Positions 57,014-64,000 of a DNA stretch of 64,000 nucleotides are shown piece after piece. The notes under the pieces were generated by a model that saw only the letters and a list, made by a program, of their open reading frames with translations, made no database searches and was not told the DNA's origin. The DNA is taken from NCBI GenBank assembly GCA_963734495.1, contig CAVTHK010000011.1:96001-160000 (forward strand). The letters are read 5' to 3'. Made by a program: the position numbers and the translations under genes. The DNA comes from an uncultured Spirochaetota bacterium (GTDB lineage: Bacteria > Spirochaetota > Spirochaetia > SZUA-6 > CAVTHK01). The first letter of the stretch is position 1; each line of letters begins with the position of its first letter.

Positions 57014-57777
57014 GCGGGGGCAGAGTCGCGGTGATCACCGGCGGGACCGAAGGGATCGGCTTGGCCTGCGCGGCGTTGTTCGTCGAGCGCGGGTGGCGGG
57101 TCGTGATCGGCGGCCGGTCGCAGGACAAGGGCCGCCGCGCCGTGGAGATCCCTGGGCGCCGAGGCCGCGTTGTTTCTGGCCGGCGACGTGGCTGACGTGG
57201 AGGTGAACCAGCGGCTGGTCGGCACGGCCACAGAGCGCTGGGGCAGGCTCGATGCGTTCGTGGCGAACGCGGCGGCGCGCGTGTACTCCGACTTCGAATC
57301 CGCAACGGCTGGGACTGGGACACGGTACTGGCGGTCAACATCAAGGCGCCGGCGTACGGGGCGCGTTTTGCCGTGCCCGCCCTCAAAGCGCAGGGCGGTG
57401 GAGCGATCGTCATCATCTCCTCGCTCAACGCGCGGGTAGCGCGCAAGACCATGCCGCTCTACGACCTCACCAAGGCAGCGCAGATCTCCATGGCGAAGAG
57501 CCTCGCGGTCGCCTACGGCCGTGCCGGCATTCGAGCCAACGCCGTCTGCCCCGGCTGGATCATCACTGACTTCCACGCGCGCAACGCGGGAGTCTCGCCG
57601 AAGGAGCTGCGCGACCGCAACCCCGGCCACTGCCCGCTCGGGCCGCCCGGCGTGCCCGCGGACATCGCGTCGCTGGTCGTCTTCCTCTGCTCCGACGAAG
57701 GCCGACATATCACGGGGCAGGAGATATACGTCGACGGGGGCGAGAGCGCGACCTCGATGAACACGAAGGTGGGGTGA
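57010..57777 (+). pseudogene. Short-chain dehydrogenase/reductase, two frameshifts (~57150, ~57311)
   Basis: TGGTEGIG, LDAFVANAA, YDLTK (YxxxK), IRANAVCPG, ITGQEIYVDGG across three frame segments. Confidence 0.85.
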
Positions 57778-57854
57778 CGGGACGCGCCCGCGAGGCCGCG
57801 CCGAGGAAAGGAAACTGCTGCGCGTCGGCGCAAGACGAATGTCAGGAGGGTGTC

Positions 57855-58948
57855 ATGCTCAGGGACAAGTTCATGGGGTGCATCGCCGCGTCGTGGATCG
57901 GCTCGTCGATGGGAGCCGTGGTCGAAGGCTGGTCGCGCGAGCGGATCAAGGAGAAGTACGGGTTCTTCGACAAGCTCGACGAATACCGCCACTACGTCAA
58001 CGTCACCGACTGGACGCGTATGCCCGGGACGACCGAGGACGGCATCGAGCGGCAGAAGCTCATGGCCACCGCCATCATCGAGAAGAAGGGCCGCATCCTC
58101 GCGCACGACCTGCTGCGCGTGTGGCTCCGCGACCTCGACCCGGCGAAGATGATCTACAAGCAGGAGCGCTTCGACAGGTCGCTGCTCGAGCTCGCGCGCG
58201 CGGGCACGCCGCCGTCGGAGCTCGGGCGCCTCTGGCCCTTTCCCAACGTGAACTCGGTGGCGCGCGCGTCCCACGTGATCGGCCTCATCAACGCGGGAGA
58301 CCCCGAGGGCGCGGCCGACGACACCTACGAGATCGGCAAGCTGTACGCGGCCGAGCATTACTTCTCGCTGCGCTGGGCCGCGCTCTACAACGCGGCGATC
58401 GCCGAGGCCTGCAAGCCGGAATGCGACCGTGGAATCCGTCATCGCGACCGCCAAGCAGTTCGTTCACTACCGCGCCGCGGCCGGCTCGCTCTACGCGCTG
58501 TACGACACGATCGAGAAGGAGGTTACGCGTGCCTTCGACCTCGCGGCGAAGCACAAGGACCCGATGAAGATGCGGGACGAGTTCTACGACTATTACAACA
58601 GCACGGACTACTTCAACTACCACATCTCGCAGGCCAACGAGGTCGTGTCCAAGGGGCTCGCGGTCTTCGCGCTCGACCAAGGGCGACCCGAAGCAGGCGA
58701 TCCTCGTCTCCTGCAACTTCGGCCGCGACACCGACTGCCTCGCCGCGGTCTCCGCAGGCCTGGCCGGCGCTCTGAGCGGACCGGGGTCGCTGCCGAAGGA
58801 GTGGATCGAGCAGGTGAACAAGGCGACGCTCGCCGACCCGTACACCAACAACAAGCGCACGATCGAGCAGACGGCCGACGGGCTCGTCGAGGCCTACACG
58901 ACGAAGGCGAAAAAGTTGAAGGAAACCCTGCGGCTGATGGGCGTCTGA
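57855..58948 (+). pseudogene. ADP-ribosylglycohydrolase-family protein (second paralog), two frameshifts (~58421, ~58675)
   Basis: DKFMG...SSMGAVVEG, GTTEDGIERQKL, and manually read CNFGRDTDCLAAVSAGLAGALSG...DPYTN; stop at 58946-58948. Confidence 0.85.
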
Positions 58949-58987
58949 TCGCCGACATCGCGCGGCGGGCGGCTCAGCGCCCAGGCG

Positions 58988-60145
58988 TCAGCGGCCGGGG
59001 TCGCGGCCGAGCGTGATCTGCGAGGAGCCGAAGTTCTCGATGCTGCGCTTCTTCTCGTGGAAGCGCGGCATGCGCGCCAGCATCCCTGCCGCCGTGTAGA
59101 AGGGGTCCGCGGGATCGAGCGGGACCCGCACCTGTCGGCCTTCAACAGACGCCTTGTAGATCGCGGTGATGAGCTCGATCGTCTTGCGTCCCTCGACGCC
59201 GTCGATGAAGGGCGCGCGGCCTCCCTCGATCGCCGAGAGGACGTCGTCGATCTGCCCCTCGTGCCCCTCGTATGGGATCGTCTCCAGCGCATCGTAGCGT
59301 GCCTGGAGGCGCCGCACGGTCTCGGCGTCCTCGACCGGGAAGCCGTTTTCAAGCGACCGGCCGGCCCTGACCTTCCAGGGGATCCAGAGGCCCGCGCGCT
59401 CGCCCTGGAACATCAAGCCCTGCTCCTCACCATGATGCACGAGAGAGGCGGTAACCTGCGACAGGGTGCCGTCGCGGTGGCGGAGGATGGCGATCGCGAG
59501 GTCCTCGACTTCGGAGTTGTCGTGGTTGACGTTCGCGATGACGGAGACGACTTCGGCCGGCATGCCGCGGAGCCAGTGCAGCAGGTCGATGTGGTGCACG
59601 GCGTGGTTGAGGGTGCAGCCGCCGCCTTCCTTTTCCCACGTGCCGCGCCACCACAGGTCGTAGTAGCTCTGCCCGCGCCACCACCAGGAGTTGACCTGCG
59701 CGTGCAGGACGCGGCCGGCGGCGCCTTCGTCGAGGAGGCGCTTCATCTTCATCATGGGCGTGCGGAAGCGGTTCTGCGCGACCACCGAGAGCAGCCGGCC
59801 CGAGCGCTTCGCGGCCGCGACCATGGCGTCGCAGTCCGCCAACGAAGTCGCCATGGGCTTCTCGCAGAGCACGTGCTTGCCGGGGTCGAGCGCGCGGATC
59901 GCGGCCTCCGCGTGCAGCGACGGCGGCAGGCAGATCGACACGAGGTCCACCGACGGGTCCGCGAAGACGGCGTCCAGCTCGCGGGCAACGGACGCGTCCA
60001 GGCCGTGCTCGTGTTTGAGCGCCTCGGCCTTCTCCGGGTAGATGTCGCAGAGCGACACGATCCGGCAGCGGGACGAGAAGCGGACGAACGCTTTCGCGTG
60101 CGTGCGGGCGATGGCGCCGCAGCCGAGCAGCGCGACTCGGATCAT
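58988..60145 (-). CDS. Gfo/Idh/MocA-family oxidoreductase
   Basis: LGCGAIA, HVLCEKPMA, WRGTW..EGGG.TLNHAVHHID. Confidence 0.95.
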   Translation of the reverse strand: MIRVALLGCGAIARTHAKAFVRFSSRCRIVSLCDIYPEKAEALKHEHGLDASVARELDAVFADPSVDLVSICLPPSLHAEAAIRALDPGKHVLCEKPMATSLADCDAMVAAAKRSGRLLSVVAQNRFRTPMMKMKRLLDEGAAGRVLHAQVNSWWWRGQSYYDLWWRGTWEKEGGGCTLNHAVHHIDLLHWLRGMPAEVVSVIANVNHDNSEVEDLAIAILRHRDGTLSQVTASLVHHGEEQGLMFQGERAGLWIPWKVRAGRSLENGFPVEDAETVRRLQARYDALETIPYEGHEGQIDDVLSAIEGGRAPFIDGVEGRKTIELITAIYKASVEGRQVRVPLDPADPFYTAAGMLARMPRFHEKKRSIENFGSSQITLGRDPGR

Positions 60146-60170
60146 GGGAGCCTCCGGGCGCTGGCGCCCA

Positions 60171-61244
60171 TCATGCGAGCCGCTCGAGGGCCTGCATCGC
60201 GGCGCGCATGTAGCCCAGCGCGAACGCCATGCCCGTATGCCACGGGCTCGATGTGCTCATCTCCGGCGTGTGGTCGGGTATCAGGACCCCGTCGTAGCGG
60301 TTGTCGCGCAGGACCTTCAGGGCGCGGATCATGTCGATGTCGCCCTCGTCCACGAACACTTCCTGGTAGTCGGGCACCCGCCCCCGGACGTTGCGGAAGT
60401 GGACGTAGAAGATCTTGCCCTCGCGGCTGTAGGTGTCCAGGGCCTCGTAGACGTCGCCGGTCGCCATCTCCTGCACCGAGCCCATGCAGAACTCGATGCC
60501 GTTGGCGGGGCTGGGCGCGAGGTCCAGCAGTCGGCGGTACTTCTCGGGCCGGTTGACGAGGCGCGCGGCGCCGCGCAGCGACTCCACCGGCGGGTCGTCG
60601 GGGTGCGCGGCGAGCCGCACGCCTGCCTCTTCGGCCACGGGCAGCACCTCGCGGAGGAAGTCCCGCGCCCGGTCCCACAGCTCCTGCTCGCCGATGCCGG
60701 CCAGGTAGCCCGGAGGCGCCTCCGGGTCGAAGACCATGTTCCAGACCATCCCGTTGGGGATCGCCCGCTCGGGATCGATCGCGGAGGCGTCGAAGCGCAC
60801 GGACATCGCGTCGCCTCGGCCGAAGGGTCCCTTGGTCCAGCCCCACACGCCGGCGATGCTGAAGTTGTACCCGATGATCGGTATCCCCGCCCTGCCGACG
60901 TTCCTGATCGTCTGCTTGACGATCTCGATCTGCCGCGCGCGCATCGGTCCGTCCAGAAGGATGTCGTGCCAGTGCGCGGGATCGAAGTTCTCGATGGCCT
61001 CCCAGCGCAGGCCGTGGCTTTCGATGGTCCTGCGGATCGCGACGAGTTCGTCGACGGTCCAGAGGCGCTCCCGGTTGAGCGTGACTCCCCACCCGCGCTC
61101 GTCGTCGCCGCGGCTCAAGCTGGGGTTGCTGCCCCGGAAGTAGTCCACGAGGTGCACGACGAGGTGCGTGACCCCGGCCTGTCGGGCGAACCTGAAGTTG
61201 TCCTCCGTAAGAGAGTCACGATACAGGCCGAGGCCGAGCTTCAT
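60171..61244 (-). CDS. uxuA: Mannonate dehydratase family protein
   Basis: FARQAGVTH, GYNF, LAAHPDDPP, GIEFCMGS, HFRNV, IPDHTP. Confidence 0.9.
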   Translation of the reverse strand: MKLGLGLYRDSLTEDNFRFARQAGVTHLVVHLVDYFRGSNPSLSRGDDERGWGVTLNRERLWTVDELVAIRRTIESHGLRWEAIENFDPAHWHDILLDGPMRARQIEIVKQTIRNVGRAGIPIIGYNFSIAGVWGWTKGPFGRGDAMSVRFDASAIDPERAIPNGMVWNMVFDPEAPPGYLAGIGEQELWDRARDFLREVLPVAEEAGVRLAAHPDDPPVESLRGAARLVNRPEKYRRLLDLAPSPANGIEFCMGSVQEMATGDVYEALDTYSREGKIFYVHFRNVRGRVPDYQEVFVDEGDIDMIRALKVLRDNRYDGVLIPDHTPEMSTSSPWHTGMAFALGYMRAAMQALERLA

Positions 61245-61398
61245 CCTGCCAATATAGCGATACCCCCACCGGGGGCGCCAAGCGCGGGCGAACCCCGCAC
61301 CGGAGCGCGATGGAGCAGTTGCGCGCCGGGCTTGCGGGGGCTGGGCGGCAGGCCGCAACGACCGGGGCGGTGTTGCGGGCGCGTGACTGGGCCCGCCC

Positions 61399-62376
61399 CT
61401 ACCCGAACAGCAGCTTGGCCGTCTTGCGCAGCATCGGGATGCCGCGCACCTCGGTGTCCAGCAGCGGGAGGATCGCGCGCACGCTGCCGTCGAAGAGCGT
61501 CTCGATCTGCTTCATGTACCCTTCCTGCATCGCGACGCGGTTCTTCACGAAGTCCGGCGAGTCCGGCCGCACGTCCCTGCGGTCGATCTGCATGTTGACC
61601 ACGACGCCGCCGACGGGGATGCCGAAGTCGTGGAACCAGCGGATGAAGCGCGTGATCACCGCGATGGGCAGCGCCTCCGGGAGCGTGATGAAGAAGAACG
61701 AGGTGAGCTTGCCGTCGGTGAGGAGCACCTTGGCCCGAGCCATCCGCTCGCGCAGGTTCAGCAGGTACTCCATGAGCGGGTCCTTCTGCTGCTTCTTCTT
61801 GCTGTAGGAGAGCAGGTCCTTCAGGGTCATGGCCTCCTCGCGGCTCTTGACCATCTTGTTGACCCACATCGAGTAGACGCCTGACATCCCGAGGAGCCTG
61901 CGCGCGTTGGCCGTCGGCGCCGTGTCGAACACGTACACGTCGTACTTGTTCTCGAACATGAGGTCGATCATGTTCTCGAACATGGCCGACTCCTCGAACG
62001 AAGGGTTCATCGTCGCGCTCTCGACGAACTCGTCGGCCTTGGTCTTGATCTCGGCGTACTTGAGGAACCACTCGATCTTTTCGCGGATCTCGTGCTTGGA
62101 CTTGTTGATGGTCTCGCGCGTGTCGATCTCGTAGGCCTGGAGGTTGGGGACCTCGGGGATGTCGGTCGGCTTGCCGAACACGTCGCGGTCCAGCATCGAG
62201 GAAAGCGAATGCACCGGGTTCGTGGACGCCAGCAGCGTCTTCCTGCCGGCGTCGGCGAACCACAGCGCCGCGGTCCCGGCCAGGACCGTCTTGCCCACCC
62301 CGCCCTTGCCGCCGAAGAAGATGTACTTCAGGCCCGGATGGGCCGCCAGGTACTGGCGCATCGTCTCTGTGATCAT
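61399..62376 (-). CDS. Get3/ArsA-family ATPase (single domain; switch I Asp replaced by Asn)
   Basis: FGGKGGVGKT, STNPVHSLS, FDTAPTAN, TLPE.LP, GVVVN; no cysteines. Confidence 0.9.
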   Translation of the reverse strand: MITETMRQYLAAHPGLKYIFFGGKGGVGKTVLAGTAALWFADAGRKTLLASTNPVHSLSSMLDRDVFGKPTDIPEVPNLQAYEIDTRETINKSKHEIREKIEWFLKYAEIKTKADEFVESATMNPSFEESAMFENMIDLMFENKYDVYVFDTAPTANARRLLGMSGVYSMWVNKMVKSREEAMTLKDLLSYSKKKQQKDPLMEYLLNLRERMARAKVLLTDGKLTSFFFITLPEALPIAVITRFIRWFHDFGIPVGGVVVNMQIDRRDVRPDSPDFVKNRVAMQEGYMKQIETLFDGSVRAILPLLDTEVRGIPMLRKTAKLLFG

Positions 62377-63353
62377 TTTTCGTCTCCAAAGAGGACAGCG
62401 GCCATCCGCTCGATCATGGGCAGTCCCGTGATGTCCGACTCGAACTCCGGCACGTGCGCCCGCACCTCGGAGCCGAACGTCTTTTCGATGGTTTCGAGGT
62501 GCCCCTTCTGCATCTGGAGCCTGTTGCGCAGGTAGTCGGGGATGTTCTGCTGCCCGAGCTCCTTGGGGATCACGCGGTTGACGACGTACCCCGACAGGGG
62601 GACGTTGTACTTCGCAAACAGGCCCGCCGCCTTCTGCGTATCGAGGATGATCATCTGTTCGGGGATCAGGACGAAGAAGAAGGCTGTCTTCTCGCGATTG
62701 GTCAGGATCCCGGAGGACGTGTTGATCCGACGCTTTATGTCCTGGAGCTCGCCGAGGATCTTGTCCTCCTCGCTCTCCTTTTCGTGCTTCATCACCGAGG
62801 CGACCTGGGCGTACTCCTGCATCTCCTCGCGGAGGCCCGTGATCTTGTCGATCCACTCGTCGTACACGGAGGCCATGCTGAGGTAGTAGAGGGCGTGGCC
62901 GAGCGGCACCAGGTCGTAGATGTAGTAGTCGTACTGTCCGCCGACGACGATGTCGACGACGGCGTCGAAGATCGCGCTCTCCTCCATGGCCGGCTCGGCG
63001 GCCGTGGCCTGGATGTAGTTCTCGATCTCCTCGGGGATCGTTTCCATTCCGTACATGGTGCGGATCTTGCCGCGGATCTCTTCCTGGTAGTCCTTGATCC
63101 GCCGGTCCGCGTCGATCTCCTGCGCGAACAGGTTAGGCATCACCTCCACGGGTCCCTTGCCGAAGATGTCGCGCTTGAAGATGTCCGACAGGCTCGCCTG
63201 GGGATCGACGGAGAAGACCAGCACCTTGAAGCCCTGCTTCGCGAGCCAGAAGGCGGTGGTCGCGGAAAAGGTCGTCTTGCCGAGGCCGCCCTTGCCGCCG
63301 AACATGATGTAGCGCCGGTCGGGATACTTCTCGAAAAAAGTTCTCAGGCTCAT
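62373..63353 (-). CDS. Get3/ArsA-family ATPase (single domain; divergent switch II)
   Basis: FGGKGGLGKTT, SVDPQASLSD, YDLVPLGH, LIPE, YVVNRV; no cysteines; stop overlaps the next start. Confidence 0.9.
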   Translation of the reverse strand: MSLRTFFEKYPDRRYIMFGGKGGLGKTTFSATTAFWLAKQGFKVLVFSVDPQASLSDIFKRDIFGKGPVEVMPNLFAQEIDADRRIKDYQEEIRGKIRTMYGMETIPEEIENYIQATAAEPAMEESAIFDAVVDIVVGGQYDYYIYDLVPLGHALYYLSMASVYDEWIDKITGLREEMQEYAQVASVMKHEKESEEDKILGELQDIKRRINTSSGILTNREKTAFFFVLIPEQMIILDTQKAAGLFAKYNVPLSGYVVNRVIPKELGQQNIPDYLRNRLQMQKGHLETIEKTFGSEVRAHVPEFESDITGLPMIERMAAVLFGDEK

Positions 63354-63407
63354 GAATGCGGCTCCTTGCCCGCAGGGTTGTTCGGTAAACGGCGGCGCCG
63401 CCGCCCC

Positions 63408-63677
63408 CTACGCCAGCGCGTCGGTCAGATCCTTCTCGCGCAGCATGCGCCGCTTCCACGTGGCGATCTGCGGCACAACGTAGGGCAGCAGCCGCAGGCT
63501 GTAGTACGGCGGAAGGATGGGCACGCCCAGCAGGTCGCCCATCGTGATCAGGATGAACAGGTGCTCCATGCTCCCGCGCGTCTTGAGCGCGAAGCGGGCC
63601 ATGTCGTGTCCCGCCATGCCGTAGAGCACGCTCTTGAAGCTCTGGAACAGGCTGCGCTTTTCCTTGTCTTTGGCCAT
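63408..63677 (-). CDS. Small conserved protein (89 aa) associated with the ArsA-like ATPases
   Basis: GAGGAG RBS; LFILITMGDLLGVPILPPYYSLRLLPY; paralog immediately upstream. Confidence 0.8.
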   Translation of the reverse strand: MAKDKEKRSLFQSFKSVLYGMAGHDMARFALKTRGSMEHLFILITMGDLLGVPILPPYYSLRLLPYVVPQIATWKRRMLREKDLTDALA

Positions 63678-63806
63678 AGATGCTCCTCAAGCTCGAGCGA
63701 CGCCGGGACCGACCCCAACGTCCCGTCTTTCTGCCTGTCCAACTGGCAACAGGCCGTTGTCTTCGCCGCCGCAAAGCGGTTGCGGGCGCCGCGGACGGCG
63801 CCCGGG

Positions 63807-64000
63807 CTAGTGAATCTCCTCCACGAACAGGTCGGTGAGGTCGCGCTCCCGCAGCATGCTGAGCTTCCAGCCCCGGATCGCGGGGATCACGTAGGGCAGG
63901 AGGCGCAGCGTGTAGTACGGAGGCAGGACAGGCACCCCGAGAAAATCGCCGAACACAACCAGCACGAACAGGCGCTCGATCTGGCCGCGCTCCCTCTGGA
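63807..64000 (-). CDS. Paralog of the 89-aa protein (C-terminal part, truncated by the window edge; absent from the ORF track)
   Basis: Manual translation: QRERGQIERLFVLVVFGDFLGVPVLPPYYTLRLLPYVIPAIRGWKLSMLRERDLTDLFVEEIH*. Confidence 0.85.
   Translation of the reverse strand, partial: QRERGQIERLFVLVVFGDFLGVPVLPPYYTLRLLPYVIPAIRGWKLSMLRERDLTDLFVEEIH

Follow-up and report, generated by a model that had tools for sequence, protein, structure and literature searches.

The question raised by the locus described here is which process is served by a doubled set of Get3/ArsA-like ATPases that is accompanied by small proteins sharing a common motif. The locus lies at positions 61399-64000 of a stretch of 64,000 nucleotides (hereafter the window; G000:C11:96001-160000) from contig CAVTHK010000011.1 of an uncultured Spirochaetota bacterium (assembly GCA_963734495.1), and the next 15 kb past base 64000 were also read. 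The original prediction for this region, made from the window itself, was that it does not confer arsenic resistance but encodes a heterodimeric ATPase with a pair of dedicated small partners. Positions 61399-64000 contain the distal genes of a minus-strand operon of five genes, in which cstA is followed by a gene for a fusion of a thioredoxin-like and a DUF7990 domain, the gene for an 89-amino acid DUF7990 protein, and the genes for ATPase 1 and ATPase 2:

Window-equivalent 64522-66324 (G000:C11:160522-162324), minus strand: cstA, encoding a 600-amino acid CstA-family permease (Pfam match with an expectation (E) value of 4.1e-117)
63807..64000, with the gene extending to window-equivalent 64454 (G000:C11:159807-160454), minus strand: C-terminal DUF7990 domain of the 215-amino acid protein P0121, earlier termed small protein A (open reading frame and translation)
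63408..63677, minus strand: small protein B, 89 amino acids, DUF7990 (PF25952) (open reading frame and homologues)
62373..63353, minus strand: ATPase 1, 326 amino acids, single-domain Get3/ArsA fold with a P-loop (open reading frame, family scores and motifs)
61399..62376, minus strand, with its ATG at 62376: ATPase 2, 325 amino acids, a paralogue of ATPase 1 (open reading frame, family scores and motifs)

The stop codon of cstA lies 67 nucleotides before the gene of the 215-amino acid protein, on the same strand, and this is the sole CstA gene found in the genome (G000). A cstA gene had been anticipated just past position 64000, and it was found directly upstream of the module once the sequence past the window was read. 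The four genes had been described as co-oriented and their ATPases as coupled by an ATGA overlap; all four frames are on the minus strand in the open reading frame listing, and the stop codon of ATPase 1 and the start codon of ATPase 2 do overlap as ATGA, a translational overlap which fits an equal dosage of the two ATPases. The description of small protein A held in part only, as the shared small domain is present but does not constitute a separate small protein, its frame, listed at 63807-63998 inside the window, continuing past position 64000 into the 215-amino acid protein. The genome's own gene call, P0121, is a 100 % match to this extended frame. A scan of this GC-rich DNA for promoters and terminators gave nothing usable. 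Among the sequencing data sets listed as containing the locus there are none of RNA, and the 20 DNA data sets all have small shares.

The conservation of this gene order was determined in two sets of loci. For set 1, a pattern derived from 11 sequences was scanned over a collection of one genome per species (185,579 species), which gave at least 611 confirmed places, and the best 80, chosen by similarity to small protein B, were kept. Neighbouring genes were scored by tblastn with the window proteins as queries, with the loci offering room for the gene in question serving as denominators. Judging by the record titles, the set 1 loci derive mostly from Chloroflexota, with some from Acidobacteria, Spirochaetota, deltaproteobacterial groups and Phycisphaerae. 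ATPase 1 and ATPase 2 are found downstream in 69/69 loci and a same-strand CstA upstream in 60/61 loci, while a second DUF7990 domain (71/78 loci) and a thioredoxin-like domain (51/71 loci) are also frequent. Because set 1 was selected on similarity to protein B, set 2 was anchored on another DUF7990 subtype, with a His-rich C-terminal tail. This second set comprised 80 metagenome loci, of which the 48 shorter than 4 kb were dropped and the 32 of at least 4 kb were kept. As far as the contigs reach, the second small protein, the B-type protein, ATPase 1 and ATPase 2 follow each other in this order in 31/32 loci, and a free-standing gene for a thioredoxin-like CxxC protein lies directly upstream of cstA in 11 of the 22 loci with room for it.

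The operon order of CstA, second DUF7990 protein, small protein, ATPase 1 and ATPase 2 hardly varies, and its recurrence in 69/69 and 60/61 testable loci indicates that it is more than a product of chance. Taken together, the counts from sets 1 and 2 show that operons of this type normally have the doubled module and that the thioredoxin-like protein is a recurrent component of them, either fused or free. Small-protein homologues occurring without ArsA-like pairs had been named as one of the observations that would speak against the original prediction, and the family co-occurs with such pairs in 69/69 loci of set 1 and 31/32 of set 2. Variations on the module were also observed. In several modules, ATPase 2 is immediately followed by a third DUF7990 gene (among the metagenome loci L114, L117, L122, L129, L146, L150 and L168, plus L078, listed together with the insertion cases). 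An insertion of ~1.7 kb separates ATPase 1 from ATPase 2 in L078 and L117, and insertions of ~0.9-1.3 kb lie on either side of ATPase 1 in L129.

The association of cstA, cstX and arsA homologues, including doubled ATPases and doubled small proteins, was already published in 2010 (Castillo and Saier 2010, Int J Microbiol 2010:187373, PMC2963123), and the locus is a real, intact and typical member of this published operon type rather than a new kind of system. The accessible text of that paper, to which all statements on it are limited here, describes 26 clusters of CstA with an ArsA homologue, with a CstX protein of ~90 amino acids in 24/26 clusters and a CstY protein of ~210 amino acids in five archaeal ones. 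Adjacent ArsA pairs are reported there from Pyrobaculum arsenaticum and Symbiobacterium thermophilum (31 and 25 % identical, respectively), and paired CstX paralogues from P. arsenaticum and Thermococcus kodakarensis. It was proposed that CstX links CstA to the ArsA homologue, thereby coupling transport to ATP hydrolysis (PMC2963123). The published operons and the present one share the CstA permease, a small protein of ~90 amino acids, single-domain ArsA homologues of ~330 amino acids and the absence of ars genes from the operon. Here, an 89-amino acid protein sits in the CstX position between cstA and the ATPases, and the DUF7990 family has the same context. By size, position and context, small protein B/DUF7990 is probably CstX, and the archaeal CstY may correspond to the 215-amino acid protein. 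The Asp/Asn asymmetry of the ATPases, the fused thioredoxin-like domain and the hairpin shape presented below are without mention in the accessible text of PMC2963123. No other use of the name CstX in this sense, and no paper naming DUF7990, was found in the literature, with subscription journals lying outside the search.

Both ATPases are clear members of the Get3/ArsA fold family. The TIGR00345 model (GET3_arsA_TRC40) matches ATPase 1 with 221.7 bits and ATPase 2 with 202.1 bits, so that both pass its curated cut-off of 135. They share the deviant Walker A motif GKGGxGKT, with a P-loop that is invariant across the orthologues. Beyond the P-loop, their nucleotide-site motifs differ:

P-loop: GGKGGLGKT in ATPase 1 and GGKGGVGKT in ATPase 2, intact
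Switch I: SVDPQAS in ATPase 1 (Asp50) and STNPVHS in ATPase 2 (Asn53 replacing the catalytic Asp)
Switch II: DLVPLGHA in ATPase 1 and DTAPTANA in ATPase 2 (Gly-His lost)

The motifs of ATPase 1 are invariant in 34 orthologues and those of ATPase 2 in 32. Furthermore, by gene order the first gene encodes SVDP and the second STNP in every two-gene locus, both in set 1 (69/69) and in set 2 (25/25). The solved structures closest by sequence are 3ug6 (E values of 2.9e-61 for ATPase 1 and 1.7e-52 for ATPase 2) and 3zq6, and an alignment of ATPase 2 to 3ug6 shows N in place of D, AN in place of GH, and Pro and Val at the CxxC positions. The two ATPases share 34 % identity with each other, compared with 64-84 % between each of them and its own orthologues elsewhere, which shows that the duplication is old and that both copies have been kept and co-inherited. 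In Get3, an Asp-to-Asn change in this position preserves ATP binding and blocks hydrolysis. Considering this effect together with the Asp/Asn asymmetry, ATPase 1 and ATPase 2 are likely to form an obligate heterodimer in which one site is functional and the other latch-like. The heterodimer had been part of the original prediction, and the complementary and invariant degeneration of the motifs strongly suggests it. A complex prediction for ATPase 1, ATPase 2, two ATP molecules and small protein B reached a score of 0.32, and a control in which ATPase 1 was replaced reached 0.30. Of the Met residues, 6 of the 13 in ATPase 1 and 10 of the 17 in ATPase 2 are in the helical middle part, Met-rich helical inserts having been noted earlier in both proteins. 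A third gene for an ATPase of the Get3/ArsA fold, which scores highest of the three against Pfam (275.8 bits), stands alone and away from CstA on another contig (L006; G000:C10:312595-313470) and may be the cell's general Get3/ArsA homologue.

Known relatives of these ATPases differ from them in several respects. The archaeal Get3 homologues (3ug6 and 3zq6) and the eukaryotic Get3/TRC40 proteins resemble them in fold, in overall length and in having the deviant Walker A motif. However, these relatives assemble as homodimers or homotetramers in which each subunit has an intact Asp and the interface a CxxC pair, whereas a heteropair with one Asn site and without CxxC is encoded here, and we know of no tail-anchored client for the ATPase 1/ATPase 2 pair. 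Two adjacent genes for Get3-fold ATPases also encode the mycobacterial BagA and BagB (Rv3679/Rv3680), which interact and are thought to act as a pair, and PDB entry 6bs3 is among the structure matches. The proteins of the present locus score only 29-43 bits, however, against the BagA and BagB cut-offs of 400 and 521, and the BagA/BagB context includes neither CstA nor DUF7990.

The DUF7990 domain is found twice in the operon, with 52 % identity between small protein B and the C-terminal domain of P0121. The motif first noticed in the two small proteins (GDxLGVPxLPPYYxLRLLPYVxP...WK..MLRE.DLTD) is indeed invariant between both domains. In a database search at E values of up to 0.001, small protein B was found to have 6330 relatives, the closest being 82-94 % identical. 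Among the matches listed, PF25952 is precomputed on 120/120 relatives of small protein B, as well as on P0121 itself and on homologues of both small domains. According to the Atlas, PF25952 is DUF7990, and the nearest Atlas clusters are 99-100 % DUF7990. A profile search of 1.84 billion cluster representatives showed 436 clusters to match the small protein B family. The AlphaFold2 (AF2) model of small protein B comprises helices at residues 4-50 and 57-88 with a turn at GVPILPP (mean predicted local distance difference test (pLDDT) score 72; predicted template modelling (pTM) score 0.34). The predicted shape of small protein B is thus that of a helical hairpin whose tip (LFILITMGDLLGVPILPPYYSLRLLPYVVP) is hydrophobic and whose ends are polar or charged. 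Its hydrophobic residues flank the turn on both sides, with a maximum of 1.59 in a 19-residue Kyte-Doolittle window; the maxima of the two small proteins are 1.59 and 1.85, each having one moderately hydrophobic stretch in its C-terminal half. Positions that are invariant in the small proteins include Gly47, Gly51, Pro53, Tyr58 and Tyr59, and Asp48 and Arg62, which lie inside the hydrophobic arms, are invariant or nearly so.

Small protein B is strongly conserved, with a median identity of 84 % to its orthologues in the 80 set 1 loci. It is also the most conserved component in set 2, in which no selection on B was made, with identities of 71-81 % for B, 68-73 % for ATPase 1, 64-70 % for ATPase 2 and 37-41 % for CstA. 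This sequence-specific constraint is a better fit to a subunit with multiple contacts than to a mere hydrophobic client. Proteins of ~400-420 amino acids in which a small protein is fused to an ATPase (five listed) were considered as evidence of contact and were rejected. In three of these (P0382, P0386 and P0387) the second half of the small gene is in a shifted frame, so that sequencing or gene-calling errors are likely, while the remaining two (P0359 and P0371) are in frame but are each represented by one sequence only. The tandem double-domain proteins P0208 and P0351 likewise resemble artefacts or read-through.

Several subtypes of DUF7990 can be distinguished by their C-terminal tails (examples include proteins P0233, P0240-P0244, P0253 and P0255). 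These include the B type (...DALA/DAMF), a subtype fused to the thioredoxin-like domain (...EEIH/QEIT/IEGID) and a His-rich subtype (...EH(D/E)xHLHG(V/L/I)). The NCBIfam family NF041419 (cory-CC-star) matches the two small domains at 33.5 and 34.1 bits, below its cut-off of 80, and their C-termini end in ...DALA and ...EEIH and not in Cys-Cys. They are thus related to this family without being members of it. A small conserved protein (PF04328) is also encoded directly after the CstA-family gene in the cstA-ybdD and btsT-yjiX loci of Escherichia coli. Unlike the small proteins here, YbdD ends in Cys-Cys, and the E. coli locus is without an ATPase. Homology between DUF7990 and YbdD/PF04328 was rejected, given an hhalign probability of 0.5 % and no Pfam match at E values of up to 0.1. 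Considering the Cys-Cys end which gives the NCBIfam relative its name and that of YbdD, variable metal-binding or redox tails may be a theme among small partners of CstA.

The 215-amino acid protein P0121 has full-length homologues of 205-253 amino acids, down to 38 % identity. Residues ~1-125 adopt a thioredoxin fold in its AF2 model (pLDDT 81-91 over residues 41-120) and the last ~85 residues form the DUF7990 domain. This N-terminal domain had been overlooked when the protein was regarded as a small partner, whereas the domain in common with small protein B had been correctly recognised. The 50 fold matches listed are mostly thioredoxins or thioredoxin-like domains, with Z-scores of 7.1-9.0 over 80-86 aligned residues. 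A Cys pair follows the first strand, as CxxxC in P0121 and as CxxC(E) in most homologues, in a loop modelled with a pLDDT below 50. An identification of this domain as ArsD was rejected, there being no ArsD Pfam match; ArsD is also not among the 50 fold matches listed, which by itself does not exclude it. A selenocysteine-containing (UxxC) thioredoxin-like partner was found in none of 160 loci, a weak test considering that the pattern recognised only 23 CxxC sites.

These components can be combined into an ATP-coupled, that is ATP-gated or ATP-driven, CstA transporter complex with DUF7990 hairpins as tethers, analogous to ArsA-ArsB, a reading which has about an even chance of being correct and in which all the contacts are inferred. 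ATPase 1 and ATPase 2 would form an ATP-sandwich heterodimer in which the Asp50 site of ATPase 1 hydrolyses ATP, while the Asn53 site of ATPase 2 would bind ATP and hydrolyse it poorly. The hydrophobic tips of both DUF7990 hairpins would lie in the membrane or against CstA, with the polar N- and C-terminal helices facing the cytoplasm, such that the hairpins would tether the ATPase dimer to CstA and couple the two. ATP binding and hydrolysis would then drive or gate the movement of substrate via CstA, much as ArsB, a secondary carrier, becomes an ATP-driven pump through ArsA. The thioredoxin-like CxxC module may provide control by redox state or by a ligand, or may pass substrate on in the manner of ArsD with ArsA. 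The ArsA-ArsB(-ArsD) pump shares with the present system an ATPase of the Get3/ArsA fold, two non-equivalent nucleotide sites and a gene position beside a carrier that is possibly self-sufficient, ArsB alone being able to work as a secondary carrier. ArsD has a thioredoxin fold, so that a partner of this fold is present in both systems. However, the two ATPases are encoded by separate genes here rather than as the one fused two-domain protein of ArsA, there are no Cys residues and no metalloid site, the carrier is CstA instead of ArsB or Acr3, DUF7990 subunits are added, and the thioredoxin-like domain is without the ArsD Pfam match. A more far-reaching version is that the module represents a class of primary, ATP-driven importers of nutrients that has not been recognised before, in which an asymmetric Get3-fold heterodimer, with a catalytic and a latch-like site, would be docked on CstA by two DUF7990 membrane hairpins and assisted by a thioredoxin-like CxxC partner for redox control or substrate hand-over. 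This version can be put forward only tentatively.

Several observations weigh against an ATP-coupled transporter complex. The studied members of the CstA family (CstA and BtsT of E. coli) are, in the accessible sources, proton symporters without any ATPase, and an ATPase is thus unnecessary for transport as such. Among the set 2 loci, one (L113) encodes CstA and a small protein without the ATPases, and in one set 1 locus (L028) the accessory genes are present with no CstA within 9 kb upstream. Four deltaproteobacterial loci (L075, L083, L084 and L086) encode a single small protein, showing that a 2+2 stoichiometry is not obligatory. The confidence of the hairpin model is no more than moderate (pTM 0.34), and the same DUF7990 domain is modelled with a pLDDT below 50 within the 215-amino acid protein. 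In addition, no experimental study of a module of CstA and an ArsA/Get3 homologue was found in the literature outside subscription journals.

The family of the ATPases would also suit a component of an ArsA-type arsenite or antimonite resistance pump, considering their matches to the Pfam ArsA_ATPase family (E values of 2.3e-67 and 2e-64) and an acr3-like gene on the same contig. The scores against the ArsA equivalog TIGR04291, however, are far below its cut-off (94.6 and 104.2 bits against 650), and the proteins consist of a single domain of ~325 rather than ~580 amino acids. Both translations contain zero Cys residues, as originally noted, and thus no metalloid ligands; most orthologues of both ATPases are also without Cys and the rest have one to three, with none conserved. 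The acr3-like gene (G000:C11:82250-83366), which is unrelated to the CstA module, lies ~13 kb ahead of the window start and ~75 kb away from the present locus. It matches as two adjoining pieces (model positions 1-224 and 224-327), the first of which contains a TAG, and looks split or broken. Searches of the genome, which is only 83 % complete, gave no match for ArsD, and the sole ArsB-like match is on another contig. Of the ars partners originally described as absent from the window, ArsB, ArsD and Acr3 have no match in or next to the operon, while arsR was not among the genes searched for. The conserved neighbour in the loci surveyed is always CstA (60/61 in set 1). A role in arsenic resistance, against which the original prediction had also decided, is effectively excluded.

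A dedicated Get3-like insertion chaperone, in which the ATPase groove would capture the DUF7990 hairpins and deliver them to the membrane as CstA subunits, with the ATPase remaining outside the working transporter, appears unlikely. Such a chaperone would agree with the archaeal Get3 homologues 3ug6 (2.9e-61 and 1.7e-52) and 3zq6 being the nearest solved relatives, with the TIGR00345 scores of both ATPases far over the cut-off, with the single moderately hydrophobic stretch of each small protein (1.59 and 1.85) and with the concentration of Met in the helical middle of ATPase 2 (10/17). The clients of Get3, however, need hydrophobicity and not a fixed sequence, while the small protein is fixed nearly residue by residue across phyla, its polar ends included. 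The hydrophobic stretch is interrupted by invariant Asp, Arg and Gly residues and four Pro residues and is followed by ~17 charged residues, unlike a classical tail anchor. On the side of the ATPases, the Get3 CxxC pair is missing from both and the middle helices of ATPase 1 are largely charged, and a strict 1:1 gene pairing with a degenerate second site is unexpected for a catalytic chaperone. A regulatory switch without energy coupling, with the ATPase pair sensing ATP/ADP, the thioredoxin-like domain sensing redox state and the small proteins opening or closing a CstA proton symporter in starvation, is equally doubtful. It draws on the same synteny evidence as the ATP-coupled complex, from whose ATP-driven version it is computationally indistinguishable, and a degenerate ATP site (Asn53) is typical of sensing or latching. 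The conserved CxxC(E) of the thioredoxin-like partner suggests a redox input, and the studied CstA transporters, as described in the accessible sources, work without ATP. However, the complete catalytic set of ATPase 1 in all 34 orthologues argues that turnover matters.

The module is patchily distributed in the host lineage. In a sample of Spirochaetota, a match was found in 4/201 genomes and was strong only in the present genome and G108, while among 31 close relatives, including the present genome, five have a match, of which four are strong (the present genome, one genome of the same genus and two others). The GC content is 0.61-0.65 over the genes for cstA, small protein B and the ATPases, compared with 0.69-0.72 in the flanks (window 61399-64000 and L003 1-5400), and the thioredoxin-like gene, which lies between the lower-GC module genes, is GC-rich (0.71-0.74). 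The module proteins are 74-88 % identical to those in metagenome-assembled genomes of Chloroflexota. The patchy presence, the drop in GC content and the identity to Chloroflexota proteins suggest lateral spread of the whole module. Downstream of the operon, the minus strand encodes a UxuA-like mannonate dehydratase/TIM-barrel protein (60171-61358) and a GFO/IDH/MocA oxidoreductase (58988-60145), and the plus strand an ADP-ribosylglycohydrolase-family protein (57774-58775); the genes at 57774-61358 are probably a separate sugar-acid cluster. Upstream of cstA are a divergent gene for a TPR-repeat protein (L003 5512-6102, plus strand) and one for a HEAT-repeat protein (L003 6180-7367, minus strand).

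CstA-family transporters are widespread importers of pyruvate and peptides that are tied to starvation. To our knowledge, ATPases of the Get3/ArsA fold have two known jobs only, namely arsenite pumping and tail-anchor targeting. A third conserved job for them, beside CstA, has been predicted since 2010, and the module pattern was matched in at least 611 places in a collection of one genome for each of 185,579 species. The present locus offers clean and intact genes for this system, with three handles in the Asp/Asn asymmetry that is fixed in the ATPase pair, the 89-amino acid hairpin protein with its extreme conservation, and the thioredoxin-like CxxC partner, which occurs as a fusion with a small protein or as the product of a gene upstream of cstA. 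Should ATP indeed power uptake through CstA, this would be the second case, after ArsAB, in which an ATPase of the Get3/ArsA fold powers a carrier that would otherwise be secondary, and the first in which nutrients are taken up.

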